A program made the translations under genes and the position numbers. From contig DYKG01000002.1 in NCBI GenBank assembly GCA_020722725.1, positions 28,851 through 92,850 of the forward strand: 64,000 nucleotides of DNA. The letters are read 5' to 3'. Source of the stretch: Candidatus Methylomirabilis sp. (GTDB lineage: Bacteria > Muiribacteriota > Ozemobacteria > Ozemobacterales > Ozemobacteraceae). The notes below the pieces were generated by a model. That model had not been told where the DNA came from and made no database searches. It saw nothing but the letters and a program-made list of their open reading frames with translations. How positions within the stretch are numbered: the first letter of the stretch is position 1; each line of letters opens with the position of its first letter. Shown here in pieces: positions 1 through 52,329 of this stretch.

Positions 1-30
1 GAGATCTTAGAGATCTCGCTTTTTATTCAG

Positions 31-103
<73 letters not shown>

Positions 104-134
104 TGAAGGACAAACAGAACAATTTATAAATGAA

Positions 135-207
<73 letters not shown>

Positions 208-229
208 AGGACATTCATTTTCACGCGGT

Positions 230-303
230 TGGGCCCAGCTGGACTTGAACCAGCGACCATCCGGTTATGAGCCGGAAGCTCTAACCAACTGAGCTATAGG
301 CCC
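230..303 (-). tRNA. tRNA with CAU anticodon; elongator Met or lysidine-modified Ile2 type (not initiator)
   Basis: The reverse complement reads GGGCCTATAGCTCAGTTGGTTAGAGC...CCGGCTCATAACCGG...GGTCGCTGGTTCAAGTCCAGCTGGGCCCA. The anticodon loop is CTCATAA. The anticodon stem lacks the three G-C pairs of an initiator tRNA. The T-arm GGTCGCTGGTTCAAGTCCAGC resembles Ile2(k2CAU) tRNAs. Confidence 0.8.
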
Positions 304-3379: not shown

Positions 3380-5410
3380 TTAAATTTTCTTATGAAAAAC
3401 TTTTACTATTGCCAGCGAACTGATCAGAAAAGCTGCCAAAATGGCTGCGAGAGCCTGAAAATCCGCCTCGTTTTCGTCTATGGACTTCATGGCAAAAAGA
3501 ATAAAACCGGGAATCTTCTTCATTGGTGAAGCAACCACCATAAATCTCCCGCCATCCTTATCCACAATTCGGCTTTGAAGGTTTTCGGTAGCCAGAACTT
3601 TTTCGAACATTTCTCCGGAAAACGAGTACTTGGCCATTTCGCCTGGAAATGGCATTCTGTCTGCCAGTCGCGATTTCATCGCCAGCTGCACGCCATCTTT
3701 GTTAAAACGACCGCCACGATGGATATGTTGCAATACCTGTTGCTTCAAAAATGCCTCAGAATGCCCCAGGGCTTCATTCCAGAATACCAGTAACAAGGGC
3801 TCTTTTTTCTCGCCAGACTCAACAAAGGTGCTATAAAGATAAAATTTCTGATTTGCAAGTGGTAGCTCAATAATCTGGTCGTTTCTTTCAAAAATTTTCA
3901 AGAAACTGGCACGACTTTCTGCGTCACCAATGAATTCATCAAGGTTTTCAGACATGGCATCGAACATCATATCATTGATGCGACTTTTCCAGCCGCCGGG
4001 CCGGGCGAATCTCATAGAAAACAAACGCCGACTCATTGCCGGCAACAATTTTCCCAGAATGCCCCCAGACTTTCCCGAGTCTGGGTAACTGAACCTGACC
4101 GCGCCTTCTTTGTTAATGACAAAAACCTTTTTCAATTCATGCTTTTCACAAGCATCTTCAAGCCTTTTGATTGCGCCCTCAGCGCCAAAGCAACAAATTT
4201 CCGCCGCAAGATCAGAATATTTCTTTTCGAGAGCCACGACAGCTGCGCCATAATGCTCATCAACCGCCCTGATCGTTCCCAACAAGTTCTGCGATGACTC
4301 CTGCTGACCAGCGCGGGCGTTAAGGAAAACCGCATAAGAACCAAGGAAAATCAAGCCCACCAGCGGCATCAATGAACCAATAAGCAAATATTGCCCCGGG
4401 TTAAGTCTGCCACCAATAATTTTTTCGGCAAAGCCGGGCGAATGAAAGGCTTTTCCCACCAGCATCATTAGCATCGTCAGCCAGAAAATTTTCAGGAAAA
4501 AGTGATAAAAAAACGAACCAAAACCAGAAAACGGGCGAAACGCCAGAATAAAGCGACCAGATTCTATGGGTAAAGCGCTTAAGATACCATGAGTCAGAGT
4601 TTTTTCATAAACATAGTCAGTTTCAAATTCCTGAAGAACTTTTTTCAGTCCGGCAAAATCAAGACCTGACCCGGAAAAAAAACGTGACAGATTAAAATTT
4701 CCGGCAACATTGCCCTGATCGACCACGGCAAAAACAGTCTTTTCCTCAGCCTGAACAGAGGAATCAATTATCAATCTCCGCAGAGCGAAATCTCTGGGAA
4801 TCTGATGATTTTCAAAAAAAACGATCATGCCGCCCTTGAATTTCCCGGATTCGAGATGAGAAAAGAATGAATTCCAGTAGAACCAGCCCGGCGAACCACC
4901 CAATTGAACATTGACCAGGCTTGATTTTTCGTTAGCCAGAAATACGGGATTGATTTTTCCAAGAAATGACTGAAATAACGGTCGATATGAAGCCAGAAGA
5001 TCGGTTTTCCCCTCTAATTCTGGCTGCACCAGTGCCTTGAAAACTTTTCCAATCAACGTATGATATAAATCAGATTCACCTTTTAACTGAATATGCTGAG
5101 CGTTCTCGTTAAAAAAGCGAAAGCTGGCAAAATTTAGCCCTTCTGCCTTAACCCGGTCAAGAAAAGCCTGGATCGTTTCAGGTTTTATCAGTTCCTCACT
5201 GAGTTTTCCATAGACAAAGTTAAGGCGTTTCTGAATAAAATTGCTGTCATTGCTTTCGCGCCGAATCATTTCAAGATCCTGTCGAATATCTTCAAAATAC
5301 TCACGCTGCAAGGTTTCTCTGTAGCTATGCAAAATGTGAAAACTGCCTGCAACAGCCGCAAGTATTGACAGGATAACGACCAGAATTGTGGGCCAGATTA
5401 CATTTTTCAT
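3380..5410 (-). CDS. Large membrane protein of unknown function (N-terminal TM, about 290-aa periplasmic segment, second TM cluster, about 320-aa cytoplasmic region)
   Basis: The 676-aa ORF has hydrophobic segments at the N-terminus and mid-protein (FFYHFFLKIFWLTMLMMLVG...LLIGSLMPLVGLIFLGSYAVFL). No recognisable catalytic motif was seen. It sits directly upstream of dnaG on the same strand. Confidence 0.6.
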   Translation of the reverse strand: MKNVIWPTILVVILSILAAVAGSFHILHSYRETLQREYFEDIRQDLEMIRRESNDSNFIQKRLNFVYGKLSEELIKPETIQAFLDRVKAEGLNFASFRFFNENAQHIQLKGESDLYHTLIGKVFKALVQPELEGKTDLLASYRPLFQSFLGKINPVFLANEKSSLVNVQLGGSPGWFYWNSFFSHLESGKFKGGMIVFFENHQIPRDFALRRLIIDSSVQAEEKTVFAVVDQGNVAGNFNLSRFFSGSGLDFAGLKKVLQEFETDYVYEKTLTHGILSALPIESGRFILAFRPFSGFGSFFYHFFLKIFWLTMLMMLVGKAFHSPGFAEKIIGGRLNPGQYLLIGSLMPLVGLIFLGSYAVFLNARAGQQESSQNLLGTIRAVDEHYGAAVVALEKKYSDLAAEICCFGAEGAIKRLEDACEKHELKKVFVINKEGAVRFSYPDSGKSGGILGKLLPAMSRRLFSMRFARPGGWKSRINDMMFDAMSENLDEFIGDAESRASFLKIFERNDQIIELPLANQKFYLYSTFVESGEKKEPLLLVFWNEALGHSEAFLKQQVLQHIHRGGRFNKDGVQLAMKSRLADRMPFPGEMAKYSFSGEMFEKVLATENLQSRIVDKDGGRFMVVASPMKKIPGFILFAMKSIDENEADFQALAAILAAFLISSLAIVKVFHKKI

Positions 5411-5535
5411 GCAACTTCTGCTTCCTCAATTGCAATATCTTCCCAATGAAATATTAATGCATTATTGTTCTGATGACAACTCAACAATCATCTGATATAT
5501 TGAAAAAAATAAATCTTCTAGTTTTAGAGGAAACC

Positions 5536-6558
5536 ATGAAAAAAACTTTGGTAACCATAGCACTGACCGGTGCCTTAATGATAAATCTGAGCGCTTTTGC
5601 ATCGGCACTCAATCCTGAAGCTGAAGCACTCTATAAGAAAGCCGAATCTGCTTTTGTCGGCAAAGATTTGTCCGCCGCCGAAACCAGCCTCGTTGAAGCT
5701 CTTAAGCTTGAGCCTGACAACGCATTTTTTCGTTACATTCTTGGTCAGGTTCAATTTAAAGCTTCAAACTTTCTCGAAGCCAAAAGCAATCTTGAGATCG
5801 TAGGTCGCTCAAGACCTTCACCAGACAAGGGCGATGATTACAATAAAAAGCTGAAAGGGTCGAAAAAGAAAATTAAAGACCTGCAGGAGGCCTTTAACAA
5901 AGCTGGTTCCGAAAAATTTGACATCTATCAAAAAAATAAAGACAACCCGAACAAGCTTAAACTTGCTGTAACTATTTACCAGGCTTTCAGGCTTAATCCG
6001 CCGCTGCGATACAAGAATTTCAAGCTTCTGGAATCAATTATTCAAACTTATGAAGAAGCACTGAAAAAATCTTTTGATGGCAGCGAATGGCAGAAAGAAC
6101 CCATGCTGCAACTGGCATTTCTTTATGAAATTGCCAATAAAAAAGACAAGGCCGCAGAGGTTTACATGCGGGCTCTCGACTATGTTGAAGATCCAAATGA
6201 AGAGTTCGTTATAACCCATAAATTTGACTATCTTAACCGCTCAAATAAAGAAAAATTGCTTGATACCATCGAAGCAGGCGAATTTACCCGCCAGGATCTC
6301 GAAGAACTTATCGGCAGCGGTAGCCAGAAGATTTCAGAAGATGACAAAAAGAAAATTGAAGACATCATTGCCGATGCCCGGGCCAAACTTGAAGATTCTA
6401 CAACTGACGAAGAGCGCGAGTCGGTGCTTGAAGAAATCAAGGCAACCATCATAGAAAAACAGAAACGCGGTGAATTGCCTGGCCAGGAAGAACTTAAAAA
6501 GAAACTTGAAAAAGAGGGTAAGACCATGGAGGAATACCTGAAAGAAAAAGGAATCTGA
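5536..6558 (+). CDS. Secreted TPR/coiled-coil protein (signal peptide MKKTLVTIALTGALMINLSAFA), Lys/Glu-rich C-terminus
   Basis: An ATG at 5536 is preceded by GAGGAA. A signal peptide is present, with a TPR-like region (LVEALKLEPDNAFFRYILGQVQ) and a charged, low-complexity C-terminal half. Confidence 0.6.
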   Translation: MKKTLVTIALTGALMINLSAFASALNPEAEALYKKAESAFVGKDLSAAETSLVEALKLEPDNAFFRYILGQVQFKASNFLEAKSNLEIVGRSRPSPDKGDDYNKKLKGSKKKIKDLQEAFNKAGSEKFDIYQKNKDNPNKLKLAVTIYQAFRLNPPLRYKNFKLLESIIQTYEEALKKSFDGSEWQKEPMLQLAFLYEIANKKDKAAEVYMRALDYVEDPNEEFVITHKFDYLNRSNKEKLLDTIEAGEFTRQDLEELIGSGSQKISEDDKKKIEDIIADARAKLEDSTTDEERESVLEEIKATIIEKQKRGELPGQEELKKKLEKEGKTMEEYLKEKGI

Positions 6559-6600: not shown

Positions 6601-8010
6601 ATGAACTTTAGAAAGTATTGTATCTTGGCATGCCTTCTGACGTTGATCTTTTCGTGCATATCCACAGCGTCATCCAATGTTGCCGACACACTGAACCAGG
6701 TGAAAGAGCACCTGGAACAAAAAGATTTTGCTTCAGCACGAACCCTTCTTATTGATGCTTTGAAAACAAATAAAGAAGAGTATCGCCTCTGGCTTGGCCT
6801 GGGTTACGTTTATGAAGAAGAGCAAGACTACCCTAAGGCTCTGCAGGCATTTACCTTTGCGAGCGAACTCAAAACCAACATTCCAGGATTATCTGAAAGG
6901 ATTAGTCGAATTCAGGAGCTGATAAAAATCAACTGGAAAGAAATCTCCAGGGATTCGAATGAAAAGTCAAATGAAAATGCCAATCACTCGCTTCTGGAAA
7001 AGGCCAGATGCCTTTTGGCATTCGGCAAAGAGCTTGAGGGCTACAAGACCTTCTATGAAGCGGTTGAGTCTGATAGAAGCATTCTGGCCAACGATTTTGG
7101 GCTGGTTGAAAAAGGCTTGAACTTTTTTAATAAAAACAGCGGCCAAGACCCTGAATTTGAGTTCTTCATCGGAGCCTATCAATATTTCTCAGGTCAATAC
7201 GACAAGGCTTCATCTCAGTTAAAAAAATATATCAGTAAAAACGAGGAATCTCCCCGATCGCAGGATGCAAAAAAGCTTCTGGATGAAACCATGGAAATCA
7301 TCAGAATGGCCAATGCAAAGCAAGATGCGGTTGAAACTGAAAAAAAACCTGACAAAATGCCGGCCTCTGCAACGATTGATGTTTCCAAACAGCCTTCAAA
7401 TTCAGAACCGATAAAGGAATATGCCTCGATTGAAGAGACTCCCTCTACCGAGCCTGTTTCCGGCGAATCTTTTTCCATCACCCTTGCAAGAGAACGTGCT
7501 TTGAAATTGCTTTCAGACTATGATCAAGAGCCAGATTCGCGCAAAAAACTGGAAATAATCTGGAGGGTTGGAATGATTAGACTGCCTGACCCCGAAATAA
7601 TGGCAAAGATGGCTGAGTTTTTAGGCGACAGTGATATTCAAACCGTTGTTGCAACCCTTGAAGCCCTGACAAAAATTGGCATAAACGGAGCCCGGATTTG
7701 TGGCTCGCATGTGTTGAAACTTCTCGACAGCGATGAATTCATTATCAAATGGTCAACTATACGTACCCTTGAAGTTTTACCTCTGCTTCCCGGCAAAGCA
7801 ATCCCCCGTCTGTTCAGGATTTATCAGAAAGAAGACCGTCCTGCCCGCCAGGGAATGATTTTAACTACCATAAATTCCTATGGGGAACCGGGTCGAAACG
7901 TCCTTAGGCAAATGCTGCAGGATGCAACCGGCCCAAATAAGAGACCAATAGCTCAAATTCTCAGCATTCTTACTGGCGAAAGCGTGGAAAATCTAATTCG
8001 TGACAGCTGA
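6601..8010 (+). CDS. TPR-repeat lipoprotein with HEAT-like C-terminal region
   Basis: A GAGGAG ribosome-binding site precedes the start. The signal peptide carries a lipobox (LTLIFSC). TPR-like helices are visible (RLWLGLGYVYEEEQDYPKALQAF), followed by an armadillo/HEAT-like C-terminus. Confidence 0.6.
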   Translation: MNFRKYCILACLLTLIFSCISTASSNVADTLNQVKEHLEQKDFASARTLLIDALKTNKEEYRLWLGLGYVYEEEQDYPKALQAFTFASELKTNIPGLSERISRIQELIKINWKEISRDSNEKSNENANHSLLEKARCLLAFGKELEGYKTFYEAVESDRSILANDFGLVEKGLNFFNKNSGQDPEFEFFIGAYQYFSGQYDKASSQLKKYISKNEESPRSQDAKKLLDETMEIIRMANAKQDAVETEKKPDKMPASATIDVSKQPSNSEPIKEYASIEETPSTEPVSGESFSITLARERALKLLSDYDQEPDSRKKLEIIWRVGMIRLPDPEIMAKMAEFLGDSDIQTVVATLEALTKIGINGARICGSHVLKLLDSDEFIIKWSTIRTLEVLPLLPGKAIPRLFRIYQKEDRPARQGMILTTINSYGEPGRNVLRQMLQDATGPNKRPIAQILSILTGESVENLIRDS

Positions 8011-8052
8011 TAAGCAGGTACAATCTTCGCTGTTCTCTGTTATAATCTAGTT

Positions 8053-8706
8053 GTGGATAATAAAAACATAAGAAAAAGTGGATTTACTCTGGTTGAAATT
8101 CTTGTTGCTGCCGCGGTTCTATCGATTTTTACGCTGGCTGGTTACAAGGTTTTCATAGCCATGTCGCGTTCTTTTCAAAAAGGCAGTTGGTCTCTGGCGA
8201 CCCAGAATAAGCTGAGAAATGGCTTGAATTTCATTCGCGAAGAAATGCAGAAGGCCACATATAGAACCGATGTTATGGTTAATGGAACTACCATTACCGA
8301 TGCTGGTTTCGAATTGAATCTCAACAACAGCGACAAGATTACCGATGGAAAAGTTGCCGAGTGGTACATCTGCCTTCCTTTCGTAAGCGGGGATATCAAC
8401 AGCCCAGGAGCAATTTTCAAATGCGAATTGAAAATTTCCGGCGGCAAATTATTATATTCCAAAGGCCTCGAAGAAGGTTCAGACCCGCTCAATAAAGAGA
8501 AAATATTTTCTAATTACAAAGTCCTTGAAGACGTATCAGAACTTGAAATAATCCAGGAAGACTTCGACCCGGACAACAAAAAAATGGGAAGTCTGATAAC
8601 TTTTGTGATTACTGTTAAGCATTATGACCAGAATCAGTATCCTGAAGCCCATGTAATCAACCGAACCGGTGCGAAAGTTGAAGTAGGAGTTTTGCGGACC
8701 CTATGA
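8053..8706 (+). CDS. Prepilin-type (type IV pilin-like/pseudopilin) protein with N-terminal cleavage/methylation motif
   Basis: The N-terminus MDNKNIRKSG|FTLVEILVAAAVLSIF has a short basic leader, G at -1, F at +1, E at +5 and a hydrophobic helix. It has a GTG start. Confidence 0.8.
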   Translation: MDNKNIRKSGFTLVEILVAAAVLSIFTLAGYKVFIAMSRSFQKGSWSLATQNKLRNGLNFIREEMQKATYRTDVMVNGTTITDAGFELNLNNSDKITDGKVAEWYICLPFVSGDINSPGAIFKCELKISGGKLLYSKGLEEGSDPLNKEKIFSNYKVLEDVSELEIIQEDFDPDNKKMGSLITFVITVKHYDQNQYPEAHVINRTGAKVEVGVLRTL

Positions 8707-9245
8707 AAAAAAGAAGAGGCTTAACTCTGGTAGAAATAATGATGGCCATTGGAATTCTTGGAGCCATCATTATTCCAGTTCTTGGTCTTCTTGACTACTC
8801 AAATCGCGGAACCCGTGAACAGGATGCTGAAGGCATTGCTGCAAACCTGGCAAAAGAAAAAATGAATCAGCTGATGTTCGTGATCAGTCGCGACAATCTG
8901 CTTGCCAATGCCGGCACAACCAGCACTGAAAACATCAAAGGCAACGACATCGCATGGAAATACCAGGTTTACACCTTCAGCAATGCAGAATTAGGCTTCA
9001 GCGTCCCCCAATTTAAGTTTCACGATCCCCAGATTTGTGCCAGCGGCTACGAATCAAGCCCAGGAACAGTCCTTGATGCGCCCAAAACCATGACTTTAGA
9101 AGAAGTTTACCCTGATGCAACTGCCGAAATCAGAATGGTCGACATCAACATGACAGTTAAATGGAAACTGCCTAACCAGGGAGCTTACGATGATAGAAAC
9201 CAGTTTCAACTGGTTGCAAGGAGGACCTTCCTTGTTACCGAATAG
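8703..9245 (+). CDS. Prepilin-type pseudopilin
   Basis: The N-terminus MKKRRG|LTLVEIMMAIGILGAIIIPVLGLL is a class III signal with E at +5. Its ATG overlaps the upstream stop (ATGA). Confidence 0.8.
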   Translation: MKKRRGLTLVEIMMAIGILGAIIIPVLGLLDYSNRGTREQDAEGIAANLAKEKMNQLMFVISRDNLLANAGTTSTENIKGNDIAWKYQVYTFSNAELGFSVPQFKFHDPQICASGYESSPGTVLDAPKTMTLEEVYPDATAEIRMVDINMTVKWKLPNQGAYDDRNQFQLVARRTFLVTE

Positions 9246-9273
9246 AAAAAAGATTGTTGGTTTGAGAAAAGGC

Positions 9274-9804
9274 ATGGCGATTCCGCTGGTGCTGGTTTTT
9301 TGCGTTTGCGTGATGGTCTTCGCATCATCGCTTGCGCTTTTCCGCAAAGAATCAAAACAGCAGAATCTTGGCAATGTTCATTTCCTTCAGGCAAATTTCA
9401 TGGCTCAAAGTGCAGTTCAGATGATGCTGCTCAAATTGAGCGCCTTTCCCCAGGAAGCCTGCGACGCAGGAGTTCTATCTCTTGGTTACTGCCCTTTCCG
9501 TGGCATCATAGCAGGAAGTGAGGTTTCTCCTAACCCTGCGAGTTCTAATTCTGATGGTCTTGCCCAGTTTTTTGCCGACTGCAATTCGACAGCATTTCCA
9601 ATCAAAGTGCCCGGGCTCTCCGCTGACTGGAAATTTGCAGTCACCGATTTCAAAGTCATCAGCGCCTACACCAATCCTGCAGAGAGACAACTTATAATTT
9701 CTGCTCAAATTACCTCAGAAGGTGAAACCAGGCTTGCAAAAGGCGGTATGGATGTTCGCAAAGAAGAAATGATCAAAACGGTAAAACTAACAAGAGAAAA
9801 TTAG
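9274..9804 (+). CDS. Membrane-anchored protein, possible GspK-like minor pseudopilin (no E+5)
   Basis: Taken from ATG 9274, the N-terminus MAIPLVLVFCVCVMVFASSLALF is hydrophobic and preceded by basic residues. The alternative start at 9190 (track) would overlap the upstream gene by 56 nt. The start is uncertain. Confidence 0.45.
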   Translation: MAIPLVLVFCVCVMVFASSLALFRKESKQQNLGNVHFLQANFMAQSAVQMMLLKLSAFPQEACDAGVLSLGYCPFRGIIAGSEVSPNPASSNSDGLAQFFADCNSTAFPIKVPGLSADWKFAVTDFKVISAYTNPAERQLIISAQITSEGETRLAKGGMDVRKEEMIKTVKLTREN

Positions 9805-9823
9805 TTCTGTCAGGAGGACCATT

Positions 9824-12409
9824 ATGTTTTACATGAAGAGGCTCTGGATTTTATTACTGATCTCGACATTATGTTCCGTTTCAATTTATGCCTGCTCTCT
9901 TCCTGCAGAACCCTGCGCAGCTGTTGTTCCCATCAACTCCAGCGGTGCCGGGATGGAAATGATAACCGAAGGAAACACCTTCTTTTATCTTGTTCCCCAG
10001 GGAACAACCGCCAGCTTCAGAACTGTCTGGGACCCCGCATCCCACAACACTGGCGGCGGATTGCTGAAAGGCAAGTATGACTGGTGCATCAAAGCAGGCA
10101 TCGCTTTTGAGCCAGGCGCAGACATGCCAAACGGTTATGGTTATTTTCCAGCGTCAGCGATGGCTGATTTCTTTGAAATTCAGGGAAAAGGCAACGTTGT
10201 TGAAGCTTTTACCAGAACCACCGGGGTTCCAACCGAAGACGCCTTTATTTCCGGCGATCTTGGCCCATATCTTACCCTGTCAGCATTTGCGAAACCCGGG
10301 CAGGAAAGTGAAGTTTCAACGATCGGTGGAACAGCGACTGAATACCCCGACGAAGGACTGTTTCCTCTTGCGGGACTTTCAAATGAACCGGTTGAGCCTG
10401 CCATCGACAGCGTTTTTCCGAACCAACTGAAGAGCAACTCCACCGTTCCCATAACTTTTGAAGGCAGCACAATCAACGTTTATAAAGTTTCAGACAACAA
10501 AGCTATTCAGATTATGAATGAAGGTCTGCTTATCGAAGACATTCAGATTGACTTGACCGACATCGAAGTCAGCGATTATAAAGCCTTCGTCAGGTCTGGG
10601 AATGAAGCCGCAAATGTTGAAATTGAAAGCTCACCCCAGATTCCGCTCAGCATCACCGGTGAGGACGGGGCTCCTGGTCCAGATTACACCATTACTTTTA
10701 ACATTCCCACCTTTAACGGGGATAAAGAAGCCTCAAAAGTGAAGTTCAAAGTATGGGCTCCCGGCGCAGGTTTTGAAATTACTCATGTTTATTGGGCCTG
10801 GGAAGAAAAGGTATTTAACAAAGATTCTGAAACAAGAGTTACCACTCCAGCAGTTTATGATGCCAGCGGTAGCCTGGTTACCCCAGAAGTCAAAACCACC
10901 AAAGAAGTCTGGAAGCAGGAACCTGGAATCAAGAAATGCAGTGAACAACTTAAGCTGAAGGTCATAAAACCAGCCAGGGAAGCTGGTTCTACCGATTTTA
11001 TCGTTTATGACACAAAAGGCCCGATCGCAGCCAGGTTCACCACTAATCCAGCCGAACAGAGCTTCGCCGAAACTGGCCAGACTACCATGCCATTCGTTCT
11101 TGAAGTTCTTGATACTAACCCCTATTTCAAAGAAGCGTTTAACACAACAATCGGCAGCTTCAATTTCAACCAGAGCGTAGATAACCTTAAGCTGAATATT
11201 TACTACACCTACCCATGTTATCAATTCAGCTCTGAGGGCGGCCTTTCAATGGATGCTCTGAAAACGGGTGGCTACGGCCTTGCTGATCTGGAAGACCTGT
11301 CAAACAAAACCGCATCCTTCAAAAGTTATAAATATGAACCCAAATGGGTATGGAAAAGAGCAAAGGTCACTGGCCTTTCAATTTCGGCAAGCACAAAAAA
11401 ACCAGGCAGTACTGGCCGACACGCTGGCTCTCTCAATACCATTAACGGAACTGTAACCATTCAACAGCCAAGACCATGGCATCAGTGCAATGACTCAACT
11501 TCAGCCGATGGTAAAAGCTCGCCTGAGCCGAAATTCAAACTTTTCGCCATTTCCAACGACAGTCAGGGACTGCCCTGCATGCAATATGCCTCGGTCTTTG
11601 GAATCGGTGAAAGTCTGGTAAGCGATACCGCCAAGCCTGATGCAGGTTCAGATTCTGAAGCATTTTCACCGTCTGATGGATCGGTTATTCCGGTTGGCGA
11701 ACTGCTTGATAAAATCCCCAGCCCGGGCATTCCGACCAGCAACTGGAGCAATCTGGCTTTCATGAAAGCAAAAGATGAGATTGCCCCGGAAATTCAAGTT
11801 GTGGTCTTCGATACAAGAACCAACAAATATCACATGTTCGGAACCAAAGAGAACGTTGATGCCAACTTCAGCAATTTTGGCAGCAACGGATTCGATGACG
11901 ACTACTCTTCAGGCGATCTGCCGTATCTTGGCAAAAAAGATGCAATCGACGGCGAACATAAATTTACTGACATAACAGATCTGAATGGGCTTTTCGACAC
12001 CTACCTGTCAGGAGCCAATGCAATTTCAACAGTTGCCGATGACACCAATGTCGGCTATGTCTGCCAGAAAAACAACCGTCTGGTTTTCTACATCAGAGCA
12101 TTCGACAACATCAATACCTGCGACGCATCGAAAAAATTTGGCGTGTCATCAATAGACTATACAATTCAGGACAAAGACGGAGCCGTATCTGATTCAATTT
12201 CAACCTCTGACATGATGAAAGCAATAGAACATGTTTTCAGGTTCGAAAACATCGATGCGGGTGGAGCAGTCAGCCCCGAATATAGTCTGACGGTTAACGC
12301 CTCTGATTTCAATGGCAACAGCCGCGAATTCAAACTTGCTATCGCAGTAATGGGGCGCAAGCTCGACATCCGCACCCTTGAAGAAAGAAGAAAAAGAATC
12401 GACGATTAA
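9824..12409 (+). CDS. Large (861 aa) secreted protein of unknown function, possible pilus-associated adhesin (PilY1-like position)
   Basis: A signal peptide is present (MKRLWILLLISTLCSVSIYA). It is the last gene of the pseudopilin cassette and is followed by a strong terminator. No catalytic motifs were recognised. Confidence 0.6.
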   Translation: MFYMKRLWILLLISTLCSVSIYACSLPAEPCAAVVPINSSGAGMEMITEGNTFFYLVPQGTTASFRTVWDPASHNTGGGLLKGKYDWCIKAGIAFEPGADMPNGYGYFPASAMADFFEIQGKGNVVEAFTRTTGVPTEDAFISGDLGPYLTLSAFAKPGQESEVSTIGGTATEYPDEGLFPLAGLSNEPVEPAIDSVFPNQLKSNSTVPITFEGSTINVYKVSDNKAIQIMNEGLLIEDIQIDLTDIEVSDYKAFVRSGNEAANVEIESSPQIPLSITGEDGAPGPDYTITFNIPTFNGDKEASKVKFKVWAPGAGFEITHVYWAWEEKVFNKDSETRVTTPAVYDASGSLVTPEVKTTKEVWKQEPGIKKCSEQLKLKVIKPAREAGSTDFIVYDTKGPIAARFTTNPAEQSFAETGQTTMPFVLEVLDTNPYFKEAFNTTIGSFNFNQSVDNLKLNIYYTYPCYQFSSEGGLSMDALKTGGYGLADLEDLSNKTASFKSYKYEPKWVWKRAKVTGLSISASTKKPGSTGRHAGSLNTINGTVTIQQPRPWHQCNDSTSADGKSSPEPKFKLFAISNDSQGLPCMQYASVFGIGESLVSDTAKPDAGSDSEAFSPSDGSVIPVGELLDKIPSPGIPTSNWSNLAFMKAKDEIAPEIQVVVFDTRTNKYHMFGTKENVDANFSNFGSNGFDDDYSSGDLPYLGKKDAIDGEHKFTDITDLNGLFDTYLSGANAISTVADDTNVGYVCQKNNRLVFYIRAFDNINTCDASKKFGVSSIDYTIQDKDGAVSDSISTSDMMKAIEHVFRFENIDAGGAVSPEYSLTVNASDFNGNSREFKLAIAVMGRKLDIRTLEERRKRIDD

Positions 12410-12430
12410 AACTGTTTATCAACCGCTTTT

Positions 12431-12466
12431 AAAAAAGCCCCCGCTTTTCCAGCGGGGGCTTTTTTA
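12431..12466. terminator. Bidirectional rho-independent terminator between convergent genes
   Basis: The sequence is AAAAAA-GCCCCCGC-TTTTCCA-GCGGGGGC-TTTTTT. It forms an 8-bp GC-rich stem with a 7-nt loop and A/T runs on both sides, and it overlaps the pfkB-family stop codon. Confidence 0.85.
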
Positions 12467-13390
12467 AATGATCTTTTTAAATTTTACCTGATTCTTTTTT
12501 TGGCATACCATCGAAAAATCGGCTTCGCATGGGCCTGGCATTTCTGAATCAGCCGCCCCTGCCGCGAGCCCCCATAGGGCAGATTCGAGAATATCTAGTC
12601 CTTGACTTCTCCCATAAAGCAAACCCGCCAGCGTTGCATCACCGCAACCAACCGCGCTTACCTGCCTGGCTTCAGCGGGATAAATTTCAAAAACATTCTC
12701 ACCATCCCATAAAAGAACCGGGTTTTTACCATCGGTTATCATTGCACCCCAGATTTTCCTGCATGCAAGATGGCTGAAGAATTTTTTCGGATCACTCATC
12801 GGGTCGATTTTGAAGGTTTCGATTGCCTCATCCCGGTTGTGTTTAAGAAAAAATCTACCAGCTTCACAGGCTCTTTGCAGAGGAATGCCTCTGGCATCGA
12901 GGTAAACCTCGGGTCTAAATTTAAAACAAACACTTAAAACTTTCAGATAAAAATCATCGTTCATACGACCAGGGATAGTTCCGGACATTGCTACAAACTT
13001 AACTTCGGGCATTCTTTTTTCAAGGCAATCAAGGAAATTAAAAACTTCAGAATTACTGAGCTCCGGACCATTCTCGATCCACCAGGTATGATATGAGGGT
13101 TGCTCAACGACCAGATTTATACCCATTCTGGTTTCACCAGAAGTTTCAACCAGATTCGCTGAAATTCCCTGTTGAATTAATCCCTTCCGGATTTTTTTGC
13201 CGTTTTCTCCGCCGGCAAAGCTCATAGCCAGGGCTGGTCTGCCAAGCGTCTTGAGCATACGCGCCACATTGATTCCCTTGCCACCGACAGTAAAGGGAAT
13301 TTGATCGGTTCTTCTGCCACCGGGGTCAGGAATGTTTTTGCTATGGAGAACATAATCGAGAAGAGGGTTTGGAGTAACTGTTACAATCAT
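12464..13390 (-). CDS. PfkB-family sugar kinase (1-phosphofructokinase/tagatose-6-phosphate kinase-like)
   Basis: The N-terminus MIVTVTPNPLLDYV...GGKGINVARML matches the FruK/LacC subfamily, and a C-terminal GCGD ribokinase-family motif is present. Confidence 0.75.
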   Translation of the reverse strand: MIVTVTPNPLLDYVLHSKNIPDPGGRRTDQIPFTVGGKGINVARMLKTLGRPALAMSFAGGENGKKIRKGLIQQGISANLVETSGETRMGINLVVEQPSYHTWWIENGPELSNSEVFNFLDCLEKRMPEVKFVAMSGTIPGRMNDDFYLKVLSVCFKFRPEVYLDARGIPLQRACEAGRFFLKHNRDEAIETFKIDPMSDPKKFFSHLACRKIWGAMITDGKNPVLLWDGENVFEIYPAEARQVSAVGCGDATLAGLLYGRSQGLDILESALWGLAAGAADSEMPGPCEADFSMVCQKKNQVKFKKII

Positions 13391-14700: not shown

Positions 14701-15072
14701 AAAAGCAGAGTAGCCTGTAAGCCGGGTTCTGTACCTTCGTGAGAAGGCGTCGGTCATCTATCTTGGATCAGGGTCTCCCCTGACCTCTAGCGATCTACCC
14801 GGAGTTAAAGCGAGACGGGCCATCTCTACTCCTGTTCGATCTTGCTCCGGCGGGGTTTACCATGTTGCACTGTTGCCAGCACAACAGGTGCGCTCTTACC
14901 GCACCATTTCAACCTTACCTGTGTCTTTCGACCATTGGCGGTATGTTTTCTGTTGCACTTTCCGTCCCCGGCAGATTTCTCTGTCGAAGCCTGGGCGTTA
15001 CCCAGCGCCTTTGCCCTGTGGAGCCCGGACTTTCCTCATCTTTTTAAAGACGCGACCGACCGGCTACTCTGC
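14701..15072 (-). ncRNA. rnpB: RNase P RNA (bacterial type A), rnpB
   Basis: The reverse complement contains GAGGAAAGTCCGGGCTCCACAGGGCAAAGGCGCTGGGTAACGCCCAGGCTTCGACAGAG (P4 and conserved core) and GGTGCGGTAAGAGCGCACC. The P1 pairing is GCAGAGTAGCC (5') with GGCTACTCTGC (3'). There is no ORF, and a U-run follows the 3' P1 strand. Confidence 0.9.
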
Positions 15073-26393: not shown

Positions 26394-26939
26394 ATGCAGA
26401 TTATCGACAACGTAATAATTTCTGATGAAGTCTGGAACACGCGCTTTGCCTGTGACCTCTCGCAATGCCGTGGCAAATGCTGCCAGATTGGCGATCTTGG
26501 CGCACCAATCAGCGACGAAGAAGCTCAAACAATCAAAGCCACCTTTCCAAAACTGACCGGTTATCTCAAGCCTTCACAGATTAATTTTCTGCAGGCCGGT
26601 GTGGTTGAGGTTTACAAAGGGAGCCTTCATATTAGAGAAGTCGCGGAAAACACACCCTGCCCACTTGCCTTTATTTCACCAGAGAATGTGATTTTGTGCT
26701 CTCTTCATGCCTACGCACTTGATGAAAAGAAGCCTTTGCTCGATTGCAAGCCATTATGGTGCTCGCTTTTTCCGCTGATGCTGAAAAAAAGCGGTGAAAG
26801 CTGGATGATCAACCTGCATATTCCGGATTTCTGCCGTTCCCAGCCCAATCCACCGCCGATTCTTTTAAGTTTCGGGGAACTGCTGACAACTTTTTTCGGT
26901 AACCAATGGCTGGAAAAAGTTAAATCGGCTTATCAGTAA
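26394..26939 (+). CDS. Cys-rich conserved hypothetical (CxxCxGxCC motif, DUF3109-like)
   Basis: The motif CDLSQCRGKCCQIGD appears near the N-terminus. Confidence 0.45.
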   Translation: MQIIDNVIISDEVWNTRFACDLSQCRGKCCQIGDLGAPISDEEAQTIKATFPKLTGYLKPSQINFLQAGVVEVYKGSLHIREVAENTPCPLAFISPENVILCSLHAYALDEKKPLLDCKPLWCSLFPLMLKKSGESWMINLHIPDFCRSQPNPPPILLSFGELLTTFFGNQWLEKVKSAYQ

Positions 26940-27481
26940 AAATACTCTTTCCAGGCTCCGGCCCTGGGGTGTGAAAGAGTTTTTACCGGTTCGGCTCCCA
27001 CCCTTTCGCCATATTTGAGCTCATCGAAACGGGCAAAGTATTCTTTTGCTGCGTCTCTTTTATCCATCTTGACCAGCAGTTCACCGGCGCGATCATATAA
27101 CGCTGGTATTCTTCGGTGCTTTTCAATCAACTCGCGAACCAGCCAGAAAGCTTCTTCGTAATAACCCTTGCTTTCAAGAACCTTGCTCAGAAACCACTGA
27201 GCGAACTCGTGGTCAGGCTTCAATTCAAGGGTGCGTCGATATTCTTTAATAGCTTCGTCTTCCATTTCAAGACTATAATAAAGATTGGCGATCTGATAGC
27301 TGAGTTCAGGATTCTTCGGATCTTTGGTGCGCATATCCTTGAGACGATGATAATAGCGTTCGCGATCCTTAACGTTTATACCGGTAGTACCCGGGTCACC
27401 GCCATAGGTGTTGGGCAGGGTAAAAAACAGAAGCATCGCTGCTGTTATTACTGCAAACAGGCTTAAAAATTTCTTTTTCAT
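26933..27481 (-). CDS. TPR-repeat lipoprotein/secreted protein
   Basis: A signal peptide is followed by TPR-like helices (ANLYYSLEMEDEAIKEYRRTLELKPDH). Confidence 0.6.
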   Translation of the reverse strand: MKKKFLSLFAVITAAMLLFFTLPNTYGGDPGTTGINVKDRERYYHRLKDMRTKDPKNPELSYQIANLYYSLEMEDEAIKEYRRTLELKPDHEFAQWFLSKVLESKGYYEEAFWLVRELIEKHRRIPALYDRAGELLVKMDKRDAAKEYFARFDELKYGERVGAEPVKTLSHPRAGAWKEYFY

Positions 27482-27520
27482 AGCCGGTCTAATCGGTAAA
27501 TTTCAAAAAAAAAGTAATAA

Positions 27521-27550
27521 AAAAAGGGCAGAAAATTCTGCCCTTTTTTT
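27521..27550. terminator. Rho-independent terminator (symmetric, usable in both directions) downstream of the 27564..28463 gene
   Basis: The sequence is AAAAA-GGGCAGAA-AAT-TTCTGCCC-TTTTTTT. Confidence 0.8.
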
Positions 27551-27563
27551 ATGAATTCAAGAT

Positions 27564-28463
27564 TTAGATGTCAGAAGTGCCTTCCTGATCAGCATCTTCT
27601 ACGGTATCAGAACCTTCGCCATCATCTGTTTCAGTTTCAGATGTCGAACCACCCATATCTTCAGAAGTATCTGATTCTTCTGAATCGAGGCTCTGTTCGT
27701 AAGCTTCAGCTTCTGACCAGCCCTGTTTCCAACCATCTTTACCAGCCTGGAAAATCTGGCCAAGCATATCGCCGAAGCCCTTGTCAGCATTGGCGGCAGT
27801 CTGACCTATCTGTTCAATTACCTTACCAATGTTGTCGAGCATTGTGCCTACTGAATACAAAACTTTACCCACGTTCATTAGAGCCTGACCAATAGCTGCG
27901 GTCCAGGGAATGGCCGACAAGGCTTTACCGATTAACTGTAGAGACTGACCCACAGTTTTCAGCAATTGACCAATTTTCTGCAGAAGCTGACCAGTTTTGA
28001 TCAATGCGCCCTGAATGCCTGCTTTTACTTTTGCAAGTTTGTCAAGCGCATCGCCATCACCACTGATAGCATCGCCAATCGATTTTACTTCGCCGGCAGC
28101 ATCTTTAGCTGTATCTTTAACGTCTTTAACTTCAGTTTTGGCACTGTCGAGCTTAGAGTTTGCTTCTCTGATTTTTCTCTTCGTACTCTTACTCATGTAC
28201 CATTTAGTTTTTGCCTTTTTGGTAGTGCTAAGCTTTTCATAGGCCTCATCAGTTTTTTCACTGCCCTCTTCGGCTTTTTCAGCAGAGGTAGCCATTGCTT
28301 TATCATCATCTACTTCTGGTGCTGCAGCAGCATCTTCAGAGCCAGCATCACTAGACCCATCCACCGAAATATCCGCAGCATAGACAGCCACCTGTAAAAT
28401 CAGCGGATTAAAAATCAAGGCGAAGCACAGCACCATCGACAACCAGAAATTACATTTTTTCAT
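27564..28463 (-). CDS. Secreted repetitive amphipathic protein with poly-acidic C-terminal tail
   Basis: A signal peptide is followed by Lys/Asp-rich helices and then tandem degenerate repeats (IGQLLKTVGQSLQLIGKAL, NVGKVLYSVGTMLDNIGKVIEQIGQTA). The C-terminus is Asp/Glu/Ser/Thr-rich. Confidence 0.55.
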   Translation of the reverse strand: MKKCNFWLSMVLCFALIFNPLILQVAVYAADISVDGSSDAGSEDAAAAPEVDDDKAMATSAEKAEEGSEKTDEAYEKLSTTKKAKTKWYMSKSTKRKIREANSKLDSAKTEVKDVKDTAKDAAGEVKSIGDAISGDGDALDKLAKVKAGIQGALIKTGQLLQKIGQLLKTVGQSLQLIGKALSAIPWTAAIGQALMNVGKVLYSVGTMLDNIGKVIEQIGQTAANADKGFGDMLGQIFQAGKDGWKQGWSEAEAYEQSLDSEESDTSEDMGGSTSETETDDGEGSDTVEDADQEGTSDI

Positions 28464-28535
28464 ATTAAACTCCTCCTGAACATTTTTATCTTCTGCAAAA
28501 CTTACGTAACAAATTTATTTTTCGTTGCTGTAGGC

Positions 28536-29219
28536 TTACAATTTTTTGTGGCCAGTTTCAAAACGCCAGTATGGATTATTCGTACTGCTGTTTAGAAAAG
28601 GGCTTGAGATTGAAGTAGTAAGCTCCAGGGCACTACCAATTTTTTCAGAACCGTATAGATTCTCTCCTTCATGAATTTTTAATCTTACCCACAGAAGAGG
28701 AACAGCCTCTTCGAGCTGATGAACGTAAACCTTGAATTCGACATCTTCGATGCCCGTGAACTTCTGGGTTTTACCGCCTTCACCACTACGAATTAAGGTT
28801 TTTGCCGAGCTGTCAAATTCATACCGAACCTGCTCAACCGTAGGTTTTTCACTGGTTGGCAAAAAAGCAAATTTGTAAAACAGAAGACCGTTTGGCAAGA
28901 CCTGAATCAAATCGCCAGCATTGCCTCCAACGCCTGAAACTGTTGCAAAAATCTGCTTTCGGGTTCTCTGAAAGTCAGAGTAACTTACATCGTCAGGATC
29001 CTCAAGTCTTGGGCAGGCACATGAGAAATCGCGTCTCAGATAATTTATCGCCAGACGACCCTCTTTAAGATTCTGCAAATTAACGGTTCCATAAAGAAAA
29101 TGATGCCGGGTACTTGATAAAAACTGAAAAATCAGAAGAAAAGCCACCAAAGCAACTGCTACGCTAATAGTCATTTCCACCAGCGTAAAAGCGTTTCTAT
29201 TTTTGTTTAAAATTTTCAT
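28536..29219 (-). CDS. Prepilin-type pseudopilin
   Basis: The N-terminus MKILNKNRNA|FTLVEMTISVAVALVAFLLIF has E at +5. Confidence 0.78.
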   Translation of the reverse strand: MKILNKNRNAFTLVEMTISVAVALVAFLLIFQFLSSTRHHFLYGTVNLQNLKEGRLAINYLRRDFSCACPRLEDPDDVSYSDFQRTRKQIFATVSGVGGNAGDLIQVLPNGLLFYKFAFLPTSEKPTVEQVRYEFDSSAKTLIRSGEGGKTQKFTGIEDVEFKVYVHQLEEAVPLLWVRLKIHEGENLYGSEKIGSALELTTSISSPFLNSSTNNPYWRFETGHKKL

Positions 29220-29220
29220 T

Positions 29221-29787
29221 TTATTCTAACAGACTCTCATCATTTAAAATCAGCACCGATAGCTGTACCTGACGACTTCTGTCGTCTGACACATTGGGAT
29301 TAGCAGGTCGATACCCCTCGCTCCATTTAACCGTCACCGTAACTTTCTTTAAAAGATCAGCATGAACATATGAATCGGTAACATCTTCGATTTTGATTTC
29401 TCGAAAGAAAAAAGCATTGTTATACTGTTCTGAATAAGCAATTGAGTCTGCGGTCAATCCGTCGCCAGACCAGACAGTATTTTTGGGATTCCCAACCGCA
29501 ATGCTTGCGGGTTTCATGTTGCTGCCATCATCGATAGAAATCGGCTCAGAAAAGGCTGAAAAAATTTCCGGGGTAACCTTGCTGTATGGAACTACTGATG
29601 CCCATTCAATTGCCTCATTGGCCAACTCCATCGCCCTCAGATAATTAATCGCCCTGGAAGTATCAGTTCTGGTCGAAGTTACCATATAAACTATTGGCAC
29701 AGCGCAGGCCGAAACCACAGCAATGGCGATCAGAACTTCAATGAAGCTGATCCCCTTGTTTGCCATCTGCCGGCCTGGGCTTATCAT
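29221..29787 (-). CDS. Prepilin-type pseudopilin (GspG/PilE-like N-terminus)
   Basis: The N-terminus MISPGRQMANKG|ISFIEVLIAIAVVSACAV has G at -1 and E at +5. Confidence 0.78.
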   Translation of the reverse strand: MISPGRQMANKGISFIEVLIAIAVVSACAVPIVYMVTSTRTDTSRAINYLRAMELANEAIEWASVVPYSKVTPEIFSAFSEPISIDDGSNMKPASIAVGNPKNTVWSGDGLTADSIAYSEQYNNAFFFREIKIEDVTDSYVHADLLKKVTVTVKWSEGYRPANPNVSDDRSRQVQLSVLILNDESLLE

Positions 29788-30086
29788 TTGATTATTTTCC
29801 CTTTATCTTTAATCAATTCATTTTCTTTGGTGAACTCAGTTCTGGTTTCAACCGAAAATACATGAGAAGGAGGCTTTGAATATCTGATTTTCCGAATTGG
29901 TCGTGCAACACCTGGAACTTTCGAATCAAGATAAGGCTCAGAGCTTTTTTGCGTGGAAATTTTCGCCGGATTATCAATATTAACGATGGTTTTCGGACTT
30001 TTTTCGGAAAAATGGTGCAGCAAAGAAAGTACGGTAGACATGACTACTACGACCGAAAGAACAATTAACCATCTTGCCTGATCCAT
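29784..30086 (-). CDS. Small single-pass membrane protein within the pseudopilin cassette
   Basis: The 100-aa protein has an N-terminal TM (WLIVLSVVVVMSTVLSLL). Its start overlaps the upstream stop and its stop overlaps the downstream start. Confidence 0.5.
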   Translation of the reverse strand: MDQARWLIVLSVVVVMSTVLSLLHHFSEKSPKTIVNIDNPAKISTQKSSEPYLDSKVPGVARPIRKIRYSKPPSHVFSVETRTEFTKENELIKDKGKIIK

Positions 30087-32594: not shown

Positions 32595-32622
32595 ATGCCG
32601 GATAACAAATTTGGGGGACGAC

Positions 32623-34029
32623 ATGAACAAAACTTTGCGAATTGGAAGCCTTGCAATTATTCTATTGATTTTTTCCGGTGCACTGGTTTTTGCTGAAAAG
32701 GCAAGCGTTACCAACACTCAAGATGCTCAGACAAATTCTGCCGGACGAGTTCTGATCGCCTTCAAGGCTGAGCGCATCGGCAAATTTCTGGCTGAGCCGG
32801 GCAATGTTCCAATAGAATTCCTTCGAAGAGCAGGCAGGGAAATTAACAAAAACTGGCCTGCAGACGAAAAATACATAGAAGCCGCATCGGTTTTTGAACA
32901 AGAAAATTTTGGCGAGAAAAACTTTCTTAAGGCAAAAAAATTTATTGAGCTGAGCTCCGGGCAACAAAAAGACGCCAAAGCCATTATCGACCGCTATTCT
33001 TCTGAAGCAGACGAACTGTTACAGGAAATCAAACCCGACGAAAGTTGTATTCTGATGAAAATGGCGGCAGAAACAGACCCGATAATCGATCTTTTGAAGA
33101 GTCTTATCGAAAGGAAACAAAATATCGGAAGCTTGAAAGAAGACCAGATTTATAAAATCCAGCATCAGATTTTGCCGATGCTTGAATGCTCTGATTATTT
33201 GATTGGAGCTGCGATCCTTTCCAATCAGGGGTTTGAAGCAAGACTCAGAATAAAAAGCCTGAGTGGGCGCCTCGCTGACCCAAGAATCAGCCATTCGATA
33301 AGTATTGGCAAGTTTATTAATAATGACGCGCTGATGGTTTTTGCCCAAACCCATCCAATTGAAGACCCCTCCGAGATTATGAAAGGCATGCTGGAAATTC
33401 CCCAGACGTTGACGGTTATTTCGATGGTAGCCTCAGCCGGCCTTGATTTTGAAAAAGATCTGCTCGCCAACAGCGCCCGCGAAAGCATTTTTTACGTTAA
33501 TCTTGAACCGGCAGAAGATTCCGGGGTACCCGACCTTCGTTTTGTAGCTCCCGTTCCAGACATCAAGAAGCTTGAAAACAATCTTGAAAAGCTCAAAACT
33601 CTTTGCGTTCAGAGCGGAATTTTTGTAAAAAATCTTGAAGGAAAGACCCCTGGAGTAAGGCTCAGCCATTTTATGTTTCCCCAATATGGCATTTTTGCAG
33701 CTATTTTCGATGAATTTATTGTTCTGGCATCAGCTGAAGAGAATCTATATGATGAAATTGATTTTCTACGATCCGTAAAGGCAGGCAAAACCGCCTCAGA
33801 TTTTTCCACCGAAAATCTGCAGAGATTCTGGCGCATCAACTTCAGCAATTTCAATTTACAGCTGCAAAAACTGCTGCAGTCGCCACTCATGGCAGACAAA
33901 GGAGTGCCACCCATACCCAATCTGGCATTTCTTGACGATCTTGATGATATGAAAATTCTTACAAGGCTTGAGCCTGATCGATTAGACCTTTCTGTGTTGT
34001 TACCGATTAGAGAAAACAAAGAAAAGTAG
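32623..34029 (+). CDS. Secreted protein of unknown function
   Basis: An ATG at 32623 is preceded by GGGGGA. A signal peptide is present (MNKTLRIGSLAIILLIFSGALVFA). The ORF-track TTG start at 32611 is less likely. Confidence 0.55.
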   Translation: MNKTLRIGSLAIILLIFSGALVFAEKASVTNTQDAQTNSAGRVLIAFKAERIGKFLAEPGNVPIEFLRRAGREINKNWPADEKYIEAASVFEQENFGEKNFLKAKKFIELSSGQQKDAKAIIDRYSSEADELLQEIKPDESCILMKMAAETDPIIDLLKSLIERKQNIGSLKEDQIYKIQHQILPMLECSDYLIGAAILSNQGFEARLRIKSLSGRLADPRISHSISIGKFINNDALMVFAQTHPIEDPSEIMKGMLEIPQTLTVISMVASAGLDFEKDLLANSARESIFYVNLEPAEDSGVPDLRFVAPVPDIKKLENNLEKLKTLCVQSGIFVKNLEGKTPGVRLSHFMFPQYGIFAAIFDEFIVLASAEENLYDEIDFLRSVKAGKTASDFSTENLQRFWRINFSNFNLQLQKLLQSPLMADKGVPPIPNLAFLDDLDDMKILTRLEPDRLDLSVLLPIRENKEK

Positions 34030-49724: not shown

Positions 49725-49739
49725 AAATACCCAATTGTT

Positions 49740-50501: not shown

Positions 50502-50517
50502 GAACCATCCTCCTCGG

Positions 50518-52326: not shown

Positions 52327-52329
52327 AAA

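Follow-up and report, generated by a model that had tools for sequence, protein, structure and literature searches.

A five-gene module of Riflebacteria with the layout of a minor-pilin tip complex and a new family of large exported proteins

Introduction

Small clusters of pilin-like genes are known in several bacterial groups. The GspI-GspJ-GspK tip (3CI0 from enterotoxigenic Escherichia coli; XcpVWX of Pseudomonas, 5VTM) comes from three adjacent small pilin-like genes. In Pseudomonas and Myxococcus the operons that combine minor pilins with PilY1 normally lie apart from pilBCD and pilMNOPQ, and Myxococcus xanthus has three such minor-pilin/PilY1 clusters. In the PilY1/PilC proteins themselves the C-terminal part is a modified beta-propeller that holds a calcium site, and a vWA domain is often present at the N-terminus. 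Prepilin-like genes followed by a large protein without known domain are also found in cyanobacteria (hpsA-hpsBCD), in Thermus (pilA1-3/comZ) and in Verrucomicrobia (the four-gene Verru_Chthon cassette), and these cassettes are repeated in the genome and set apart from the core machine. We have analyzed a gene cluster with a comparable layout, located in a stretch of 64,000 nucleotides of contig DYKG01000002.1 (positions 28,851 to 92,850, assembly GCA_020722725.1), which we call the window; all coordinates below refer to it. A preliminary description of the sequence had pointed to an orphan cassette of two prepilins, a GspK-like protein and a large secreted protein in the place of PilY1. Our analysis indicates that the cassette is part of a module of five genes that are inherited together, and that the large protein belongs to a new family. 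We consider it somewhat probable (about 0.58) that the module is a Riflebacteria-specific, GspI-J-K-like priming or tip complex of a type IV filament that carries the large protein, a probable novel lipoprotein, with the rest of the machinery encoded elsewhere.

A conserved five-gene module

The module lies on the plus strand between 6601 and 12409. Its first gene (6601-8010) codes for an exported protein of 469 residues, here called TPR-HEAT, with TPR_16 and TPR_19 domains at residues 32-84 and a HEAT_2 domain at 371-445. It is followed by A (8053-8706; 217 residues from a GTG start), a prepilin-type minor pilin of a GspJ/PilW-like class; B (8703-9245; 180 residues), also prepilin-type, of a GspI/PilV/ComGE-like class; C (9232-9804; 190 residues), a protein of predicted pilin fold that by its N-terminus and model follows the cap logic of GspK and PilX; and D (9824-12409; 861 residues), an exported, all-beta, multi-domain protein that is probably lipidated.

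The same genes are found together well outside this contig. At every related locus with enough flanking sequence, A, B, C and D appear in that order accompanied by a TPR-HEAT homologue, which is located either directly upstream on the same strand, as in the window, or convergent and downstream. There are two to three diverged paralogues of the module per genome, and each of the paralogous modules owns a TPR gene. Some genomes have two D genes, ~37% and ~52% identical to the query, and a separate A-B-C set and TPR gene go with each of them. Three loci (L001, L029 and L031) contain a further diverged A'-B'-C'-TPR' set with 26-37% identity, together with a D-like protein of 1035-1094 residues that keeps the N-terminal 'AC..P.DP' and the C-terminal '...IRTIEDRRNR'. 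Homologous A, B and C genes also precede the distant D genes of loci L026 and L027. Since the paralogous A-B-C sets each carry their own D and TPR genes, the five components have, judging from these gene neighbourhoods, duplicated and diverged as one unit. All the named homologues of D and C come from metagenome-assembled genomes of Candidatus Riflebacteria/Rifleibacteriota. In more than 12 independent contexts the module was never located beside core genes of type IV pili or type II secretion, so that the orphan state is the rule and no anomaly. The four genes originally described are real, but the co-inherited TPR-HEAT gene, the paralogous modules and a second cassette in the window (see below) had been missed.

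The homologues of TPR-HEAT have ordinary signal peptides of the signal peptidase I type, and the Cys of the window copy is not conserved among them, so that the protein is probably soluble in the periplasm. We regard it as a putative periplasmic chaperone or assembly factor. Two neighbours were also considered as members and rejected, being present only in the synteny class linked to dnaG. One is TPR361 (5473-6558, plus strand), a secreted TPR/coiled-coil protein of 361 residues just upstream of the module, which keeps 78-86% identity where the D proteins of the same genomes share only 38-67%. The other is a predicted membrane protein of 676 residues (3380-5410, minus strand), divergent from the TPR genes and without Pfam or NCBIfam match. 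In loci L001, L006 and L014 it is conserved, at 34-44% identity, in the interval from dnaG to the TPR gene.

The genes of the window copy are tightly packed. The ATG of B overlaps the stop codon of A (ATGA), B and C overlap by 14 nucleotides, and the gaps between C and D and between TPR-HEAT and A are of 19 and 42 nucleotides. This packing, together with the strong Shine-Dalgarno sites of C and D, suggests that A-B-C-D are translationally coupled. In D, AGGAGG precedes the ATG at 9824 by six bases. In C, whose first-listed start was the ATG at 9190, AGGAGG is found at 9220-9225, six bases ahead of a TTG at 9232. This TTG is most likely the true start, because of the Shine-Dalgarno site, because it leaves with B a 14-nucleotide overlap like that of the homologues and because conservation begins there. 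A starts with GTG and has no Shine-Dalgarno site, unlike C and D with their strong AGGAGG, and a perfect TATAAT is located at 8042-8047, ~6 nucleotides upstream of A and inside the 42-nucleotide gap after the TPR-HEAT gene. It may be an internal promoter, or the transcript of A may be near-leaderless. As had been reported, a strong terminator closes the cassette. It is a bidirectional intrinsic terminator at 12428-12468 shared by the convergent genes D and pfkB that flank it, with a stem of 18 pairs, eight of them G-C (AAAAAAGCCCCCGC...GCGGGGGCTTTTTT), a loop of 5 nucleotides and flanking runs of A and T.

Two prepilins and a protein of predicted pilin fold without Glu5

The leader of A is MDNKNIRKSG, followed by FTLVEILVAAAVLS, and that of B is MKKRRG, followed by LTLVEIMMAIGILG. 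Against the N_methyl model PF07963 (gathering score 21.2) A reached 29.6 bits (E 4.5e-7) and B 25.0 bits (E 1.3e-5); with TIGR02532, whose cut-off is 16.3 bits, the scores were 26.8 and 16.9. PF07963 was also passed by 15/15 homologues of A and by 15/15 of B, and therefore the class III motif is no chance occurrence. Among the 15 homologues of A, Gly-1, Thr+2, Leu+3 and Glu+5 are invariant. Glu+5 is equally invariant in the 15 homologues of B, where position -1 is Gly or Ala. The same residues at -1 (Gly in A, Gly or Ala in B) and Glu+5 are kept even in the deep paralogues of both. By these signatures A and B are type IV pilin-like proteins with class III signal peptides, in agreement with their first description as unambiguous prepilins.

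Below the thresholds, the A family matched NCBIfam models over the first ~70 residues only, namely PRK10557 (prepilin peptidase-dependent protein) in 15/15 members, GspJ in 11/15, Verru_Chthon cassette protein C in 8/15, ComGF in 7/15 and HpsC in 4/15. The corresponding sub-threshold matches of the B family were to ComGE (14/15), XpsI (9/15), PilV (7/15), GspI (3/15, E<=0.01) and Verru_Chthon cassette protein B (1/15). With the GspJ model TIGR01711, A scored 22.5 bits against the 64.85 needed, aligning only at residues 10-72 (the N-terminal helix), and none of the 15 A members matched PF11612 (T2SSJ). B scored 28.3 against 44.35 bits with the GspI model TIGR01707, over model positions 1-83 of 101, and its members did not match PF02501 (T2SSI). 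For the Verru_Chthon models (TIGR02596-02600) the value of A was 15.7 against 256.5 bits for protein C, and our C and D had no match. Scanning each member of the A, B and C families with the T2SSI/J/K, PilW and PilX_N Pfam models was negative in all cases. Profiles of A, B and C compared with all PDB chains found pilin N-terminal helices only, or nothing, and for this reason no homology of the globular domains can be claimed. A weakly resembles GspJ, and B GspI/PilV, in the N-terminal helices only.

The N-terminus of C reads MLPNRKKIVGLRKG followed by MAIPLVLVF and has no Glu at +5. Across the C family G-x-A-x-P is invariant and Glu5 is absent, the latter being a feature by which the capping subunits GspK and PilX are recognised. 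The AlphaFold2 model of C, built with 50 homologues (predicted local distance difference test, pLDDT, 82.6), shows an N-terminal helix 56 residues long, a second helix that is short, and an antiparallel sheet of three strands, that is, the 'lollipop' of pilins. When compared with known structures, GspK was the best pilin match, with other minor pilins next. There was no Pfam match, including PF03934 (T2SSK), though the lack of Glu5 fits GspK. C would work like a cap, yet is not a member of the GspK family. The GspK-like character attributed before to this protein is upheld by the missing Glu5, the modelled pilin fold and its closest pilin match, but the start had been placed at 9190 instead of 9232 and family membership does not follow. 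By analogy, A, B and C can be described as J-like, I-like and K/X-like, none of them in a named minor-pilin family.

A large protein with conserved ends and a variable centre

D gave no match in Pfam or NCBIfam even at E<=1, in line with its earlier description as lacking any recognisable domain. Its AlphaFold2 model (23 sequences, pLDDT 77, predicted template modelling score 0.66) is nearly all beta. Several of its strands are very long, and the loops at 553-567 and 677-742 were predicted with low confidence. The model suggests a chain of immunoglobulin-like (Ig-like) beta-sandwich domains, a fold typical of adhesins and not of enzymes. Neither the model nor the PDB structure searches revealed a beta-propeller, a vWA domain or an enzyme fold, and PDB searches found no DNA-binding fold and no similarity to ComZ. 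D did not qualify as PilY1 (PF05567) either. On the model, D is not a member of the PilY1 family, since beta-propeller and vWA domain are missing, nor is it an enzyme; the earlier concern that it could turn out to be an unrelated enzyme finds no support.

The N-terminus of D, rightly described as that of a secreted protein, is a Sec signal peptide that ends in [A/S]-Cys24 and is followed by an invariant SLPAEP. The lipobox-like Cys24 had been overlooked. By inspection it is invariant in 23/23 close homologues, always with Ala or Ser at position -1, and is found also in the distant ones. Position -3 is L, V, I or A in 20/23, whereas at position -2 bulky residues (F/M/L/W/Y) prevail, unlike in a typical lipobox. 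We therefore regard D as probably a lipoprotein with a somewhat atypical lipobox. At the other end, the domain at ~640-845 is conserved and defines the family, and the tail IRTLEERRKR is invariant. A C-terminal sorting signal (LPXTG, PEP-CTERM and similar) was considered for this tail and ruled out, as there is no transmembrane segment ahead of the basic cluster. Over the wide family, conservation is highest at 21-40, 641-680, 741-780 and 801-860 and lowest in the middle of the protein. Such a pattern, with the ends conserved and the centre variable, would be expected if the protein docked on a partner that is itself conserved and displayed a variable binding surface.

A profile of D searched against 1.84 billion representative proteins recovered only 44 clusters. 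The distant relatives, of 630-1635 residues, begin with a signal peptide and [A/G/S]-C-x-[L/M]-P-x-[D/E/H]-P, share the blocks 'WVDEDTRLVF..V..DNIN' and 'Y[I/V]FR[N/D]PN', and end in the tail '[L/I]-basic-x-[S/T]-L-E-E-x-basic'. We define D as a new family by its Cys-LP-x-[D/E]-P N-terminus, its Ig-like variable middle and its C-terminal domain with an [S/T]LEE-basic tail.

Possible function of the module

The priming or tip complex that we favour builds on the motifs, the export signals, the modelled pilin fold of C, the operon structure and the strict co-inheritance of the five components. We think that the filament served is a type IV pilus or a type II-secretion-like pseudopilus, with motor, platform, secretin and prepilin peptidase located elsewhere in the genome. 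A and B would be inserted by Sec and their short basic leaders cut after Gly by the prepilin peptidase. From motifs, gene order and the model of C, the N-terminal helices of A, B and C would bundle into an I-J-K-like heterotrimer with C at its top, since a subunit that lacks Glu5 can do without a neighbour above it. D would be exported by Sec, probably lipidated on Cys24, and would dock on the trimer through the parts common to all its paralogues, that is, the CxLPx[D/E]P N-terminus, the C-terminal domain and the [S/T]LEE-basic tail. TPR clamps elsewhere bind C-terminal peptides, and TPR-HEAT could, speculatively and judging from its strict co-inheritance, be the periplasmic chaperone or assembly factor of the complex, possibly binding the charged C-terminal tail of D. 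A major pilin or pseudopilin polymerising beneath would then push the complex and D outwards, where the variable central Ig-like domains might bind their target, making D an adhesin or a receptor. Several diverged modules per genome would provide tips of different specificity, like the three minor-pilin/PilY1 clusters of Myxococcus. Riflebacteria have been reported as diderm Terrabacteria with OmpM (bioRxiv 10.1101/2021.05.31.446380), and a secretin-dependent surface filament is therefore plausible in them.

Several observations weigh against such a complex. A domain scan of every open reading frame of at least 150 residues in coding frame found no T2SSE/PilB, T2SSF/PilC, secretin, PilM-P or prepilin-peptidase domain in the window, and core machinery genes were equally missing from the 10 kb past its right end (taken from an 88-kb contig with identical genes), as the preliminary description had stated for the vicinity of the cassette. 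In ~525 kb of related loci there was no motif match to a GspE-type Walker A, a secretin C-terminus or a PilD active site. No major pilin gene was identified in the window or in the neighbouring sequence examined. At the sequence level the globular regions of A, B and C fit none of the known minor-pilin families, the structural match being that of the C model, and C itself has 190 residues against about 300 in GspK, its model being without the inserted alpha-helical domain of the latter. D has no homology to PilY1, and a lipid anchor is hard to square with riding on a filament tip unless D is membrane-tethered or released. Finally, a 9-kb contig (L025) has a distant D-like gene without adjacent pilin genes.

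Part of the evidence could also be accommodated if A-B-C capped a short periplasmic piston, a type II-like pseudopilus, and D were its dedicated cargo, a surface lipoprotein leaving through a secretin like the pullulanase PulA of Klebsiella. A and B lean to the GspJ and GspI/XpsI models, the best pilin match of C is GspK, the signal of D is lipoprotein-like with an invariant Cys, and the isolated D-like gene of L025 is what a substrate might look like. We find this unlikely, as type II substrates are not normally co-inherited gene for gene with their own set of minor pseudopilins, and here a separate D and a separate TPR gene accompany every paralogous A-B-C set. The D paralogues keep their N- and C-terminal motifs while the middle varies, as in a docking module rather than a cargo. 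Besides, none of the genes for GspC, D, E, F, L, M or G is near the module, and D lacks an enzyme fold.

A machine-independent envelope complex is improbable to us. The pilin-like trio would be anchored in the inner membrane by its N-terminal helices and form with TPR-HEAT a static periplasmic scaffold that holds or delivers D, a lineage-specific device for lipoprotein display or envelope bridging that would need at most a prepilin peptidase. The module never adjoins filament machinery in more than 12 contexts and is always accompanied by a TPR gene, a major pilin is missing from its vicinity, lipidation of D is probable, and Riflebacteria are rich in lineage-specific gene families (PMC10849945). 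However, a static anchor needs no Glu5, and the invariant Gly-1 and Glu+5 of A and B, extending to deep paralogues, are a signature of processing and filament packing. Separation from the core genes is, besides, normal for minor-pilin operons in known systems. In the same low range of probability we place a self-contained, phylum-specific apparatus in which the trio and TPR-HEAT export, display or tether D with no need for the conventional motor of type IV pili or type II secretion. If it existed, such a motor-free apparatus would put the pilin fold to a new use and might give lipoproteins of diderm Terrabacteria a new route to the cell surface.

The tip of a competence pseudopilus for DNA uptake, as ComGD-GG of Firmicutes or PilA1-3/ComZ of Thermus, with D as a DNA- or receptor-binding partner, is very improbable: the ComGE matches of B (14/15) and the ComGF matches of A (7/15) point in this direction, and Thermus likewise pairs minor pilins with a large non-pilin protein, but all these matches are sub-threshold and in the N-terminal helix only, there is no comGA/GB, comEA/EC or dprA near the module, D shows neither DNA-binding fold nor ComZ similarity, and several paralogous modules per genome fit better with the diversification of an adhesin.

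Riflebacteria are uncultivated. Our literature searches on Riflebacteria, Ozemobacter and Rifleibacterium turned up no account of this module, nor any report that the phylum has type IV pilus or type II secretion genes. No other phylum has been reported with so high a density of unknown and synapomorphic gene families (PMC10849945), and our analysis assigns a probable role to five of these families at once. The newly defined D family, tip-associated or cargo, is always accompanied by an I-J-K-like pilin trio and a TPR protein of its own. If the tip complex is real, the I-J-K priming core would have been retained while the carried partner was swapped, Ig-like lipoproteins in this case and Kelch propellers in the cassette next to the module of L027, and the paralogous sets could give surface filaments of different specificity.

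Other genes of the window and further pilin-like cassettes

The 64 kb are core chromosome, with tRNAs, rpoD, dnaG, der, plsY, gpsA, lepA, a class A penicillin-binding protein and RNase P RNA, and the G+C content is even along the whole window. Two tRNA-Glu(TTC) genes and a tRNA-Met are located at its start (30-303, minus strand). The RNase P RNA, of bacterial class A (14702-15071, minus strand, 283 bits), occupies the gap between the genes of a polysaccharide deacetylase and of a TPM-domain protein, and the short plus-strand open reading frames at the same position are spurious. A signalling cluster at 48510-53508, with a cyclic nucleotide-binding ParA/MinD-like ATPase, a PP2C phosphatase, a Ser/Thr kinase with PEGA domain and an FHA-ParA/MipZ-like ATPase, has no relation to the pilin cassette.

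A second pseudopilin cassette is found in the window at ~26.9-32.5 kb (26933-32500, minus strand) and continues at 32611-34029 (plus strand). It includes a protein of 804 residues with a GspK/PilX-like N-terminus (HRSG, then FILYIVITVLLALAIL), without Glu5 or Pfam domain; a prepilin of 188 residues (NKG, then ISFIEVLIAIAVV); a prepilin-like protein of 227 residues (NRNA, then FTLVEMTISVAV) which at 20.4 bits is just below the cut-off of PF07963; a single-pass protein of 100 residues; a secreted acidic repeat protein of 299 residues (DUF6944-like); and a TPR protein of 182 residues. We considered whether it was a paralogue of the A-B-C module and rejected it, the likeness being limited to the N-terminal helices. 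Another cassette is located directly downstream of the distant A-B-C-D module of L027 (11265-17264 of that locus). It has a GspH-like prepilin of 196 residues, two pilin-like proteins of 213 and 235 residues and a protein of 1349 residues in which a prepilin N-terminus (HG, then FSLVEALVLVILAG) is fused to a Kelch beta-propeller. The latter is a giant pilin bearing a propeller, closer in spirit to PilY1.

Comparison with known systems

Like the GspI-GspJ-GspK tip, the module has three adjacent small pilin-like genes, two of them with canonical prepilin N-termini (G before (F/L)TLxE) and one without Glu5. A and B match the GspJ and GspI/XpsI models weakly, and none reaches the family cut-off. 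The gene order is J-I-K instead of I-J-K, there is no GspG, GspH or gspC-O operon, and the large D gene and the TPR-HEAT gene are additions that belong to the Riflebacteria unit.

The resemblance to fimU-pilVWX-pilY1(-pilE) of Pseudomonas aeruginosa and Myxococcus xanthus, proposed at the outset, holds for the layout. In both cases minor pilins are followed in one operon by a large exported non-pilin protein, so that D occupies the place of pilY1, the cluster is distant from pilBCD and pilMNOPQ, and there are several paralogous clusters per genome. It does not extend to the large protein, for instead of the C-terminal beta-propeller (PF05567) and vWA domain of PilY1, D has an Ig-like array with a lipoprotein-type signal. 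Besides, the Riflebacteria module has only three pilin-like genes, without a FimU/GspH-like or PilE-like member, and TPR-HEAT is always attached.

The hpsA-D, pilA1-3/comZ and Verru_Chthon cassettes share the architecture of the module. The matches of A and B to them are far under the cut-offs and in the N-terminal helix only, and D matches none. The general architecture is a familiar one, a few minor pilins with a large non-pilin protein in multiple copies away from the core genes, and it is no new kind of machine. What is new are the globular domains of A, B and C, outside known families, the D family, and a periplasmic TPR(-HEAT) protein as obligate fifth component, in a module whose named members all come from Riflebacteria.

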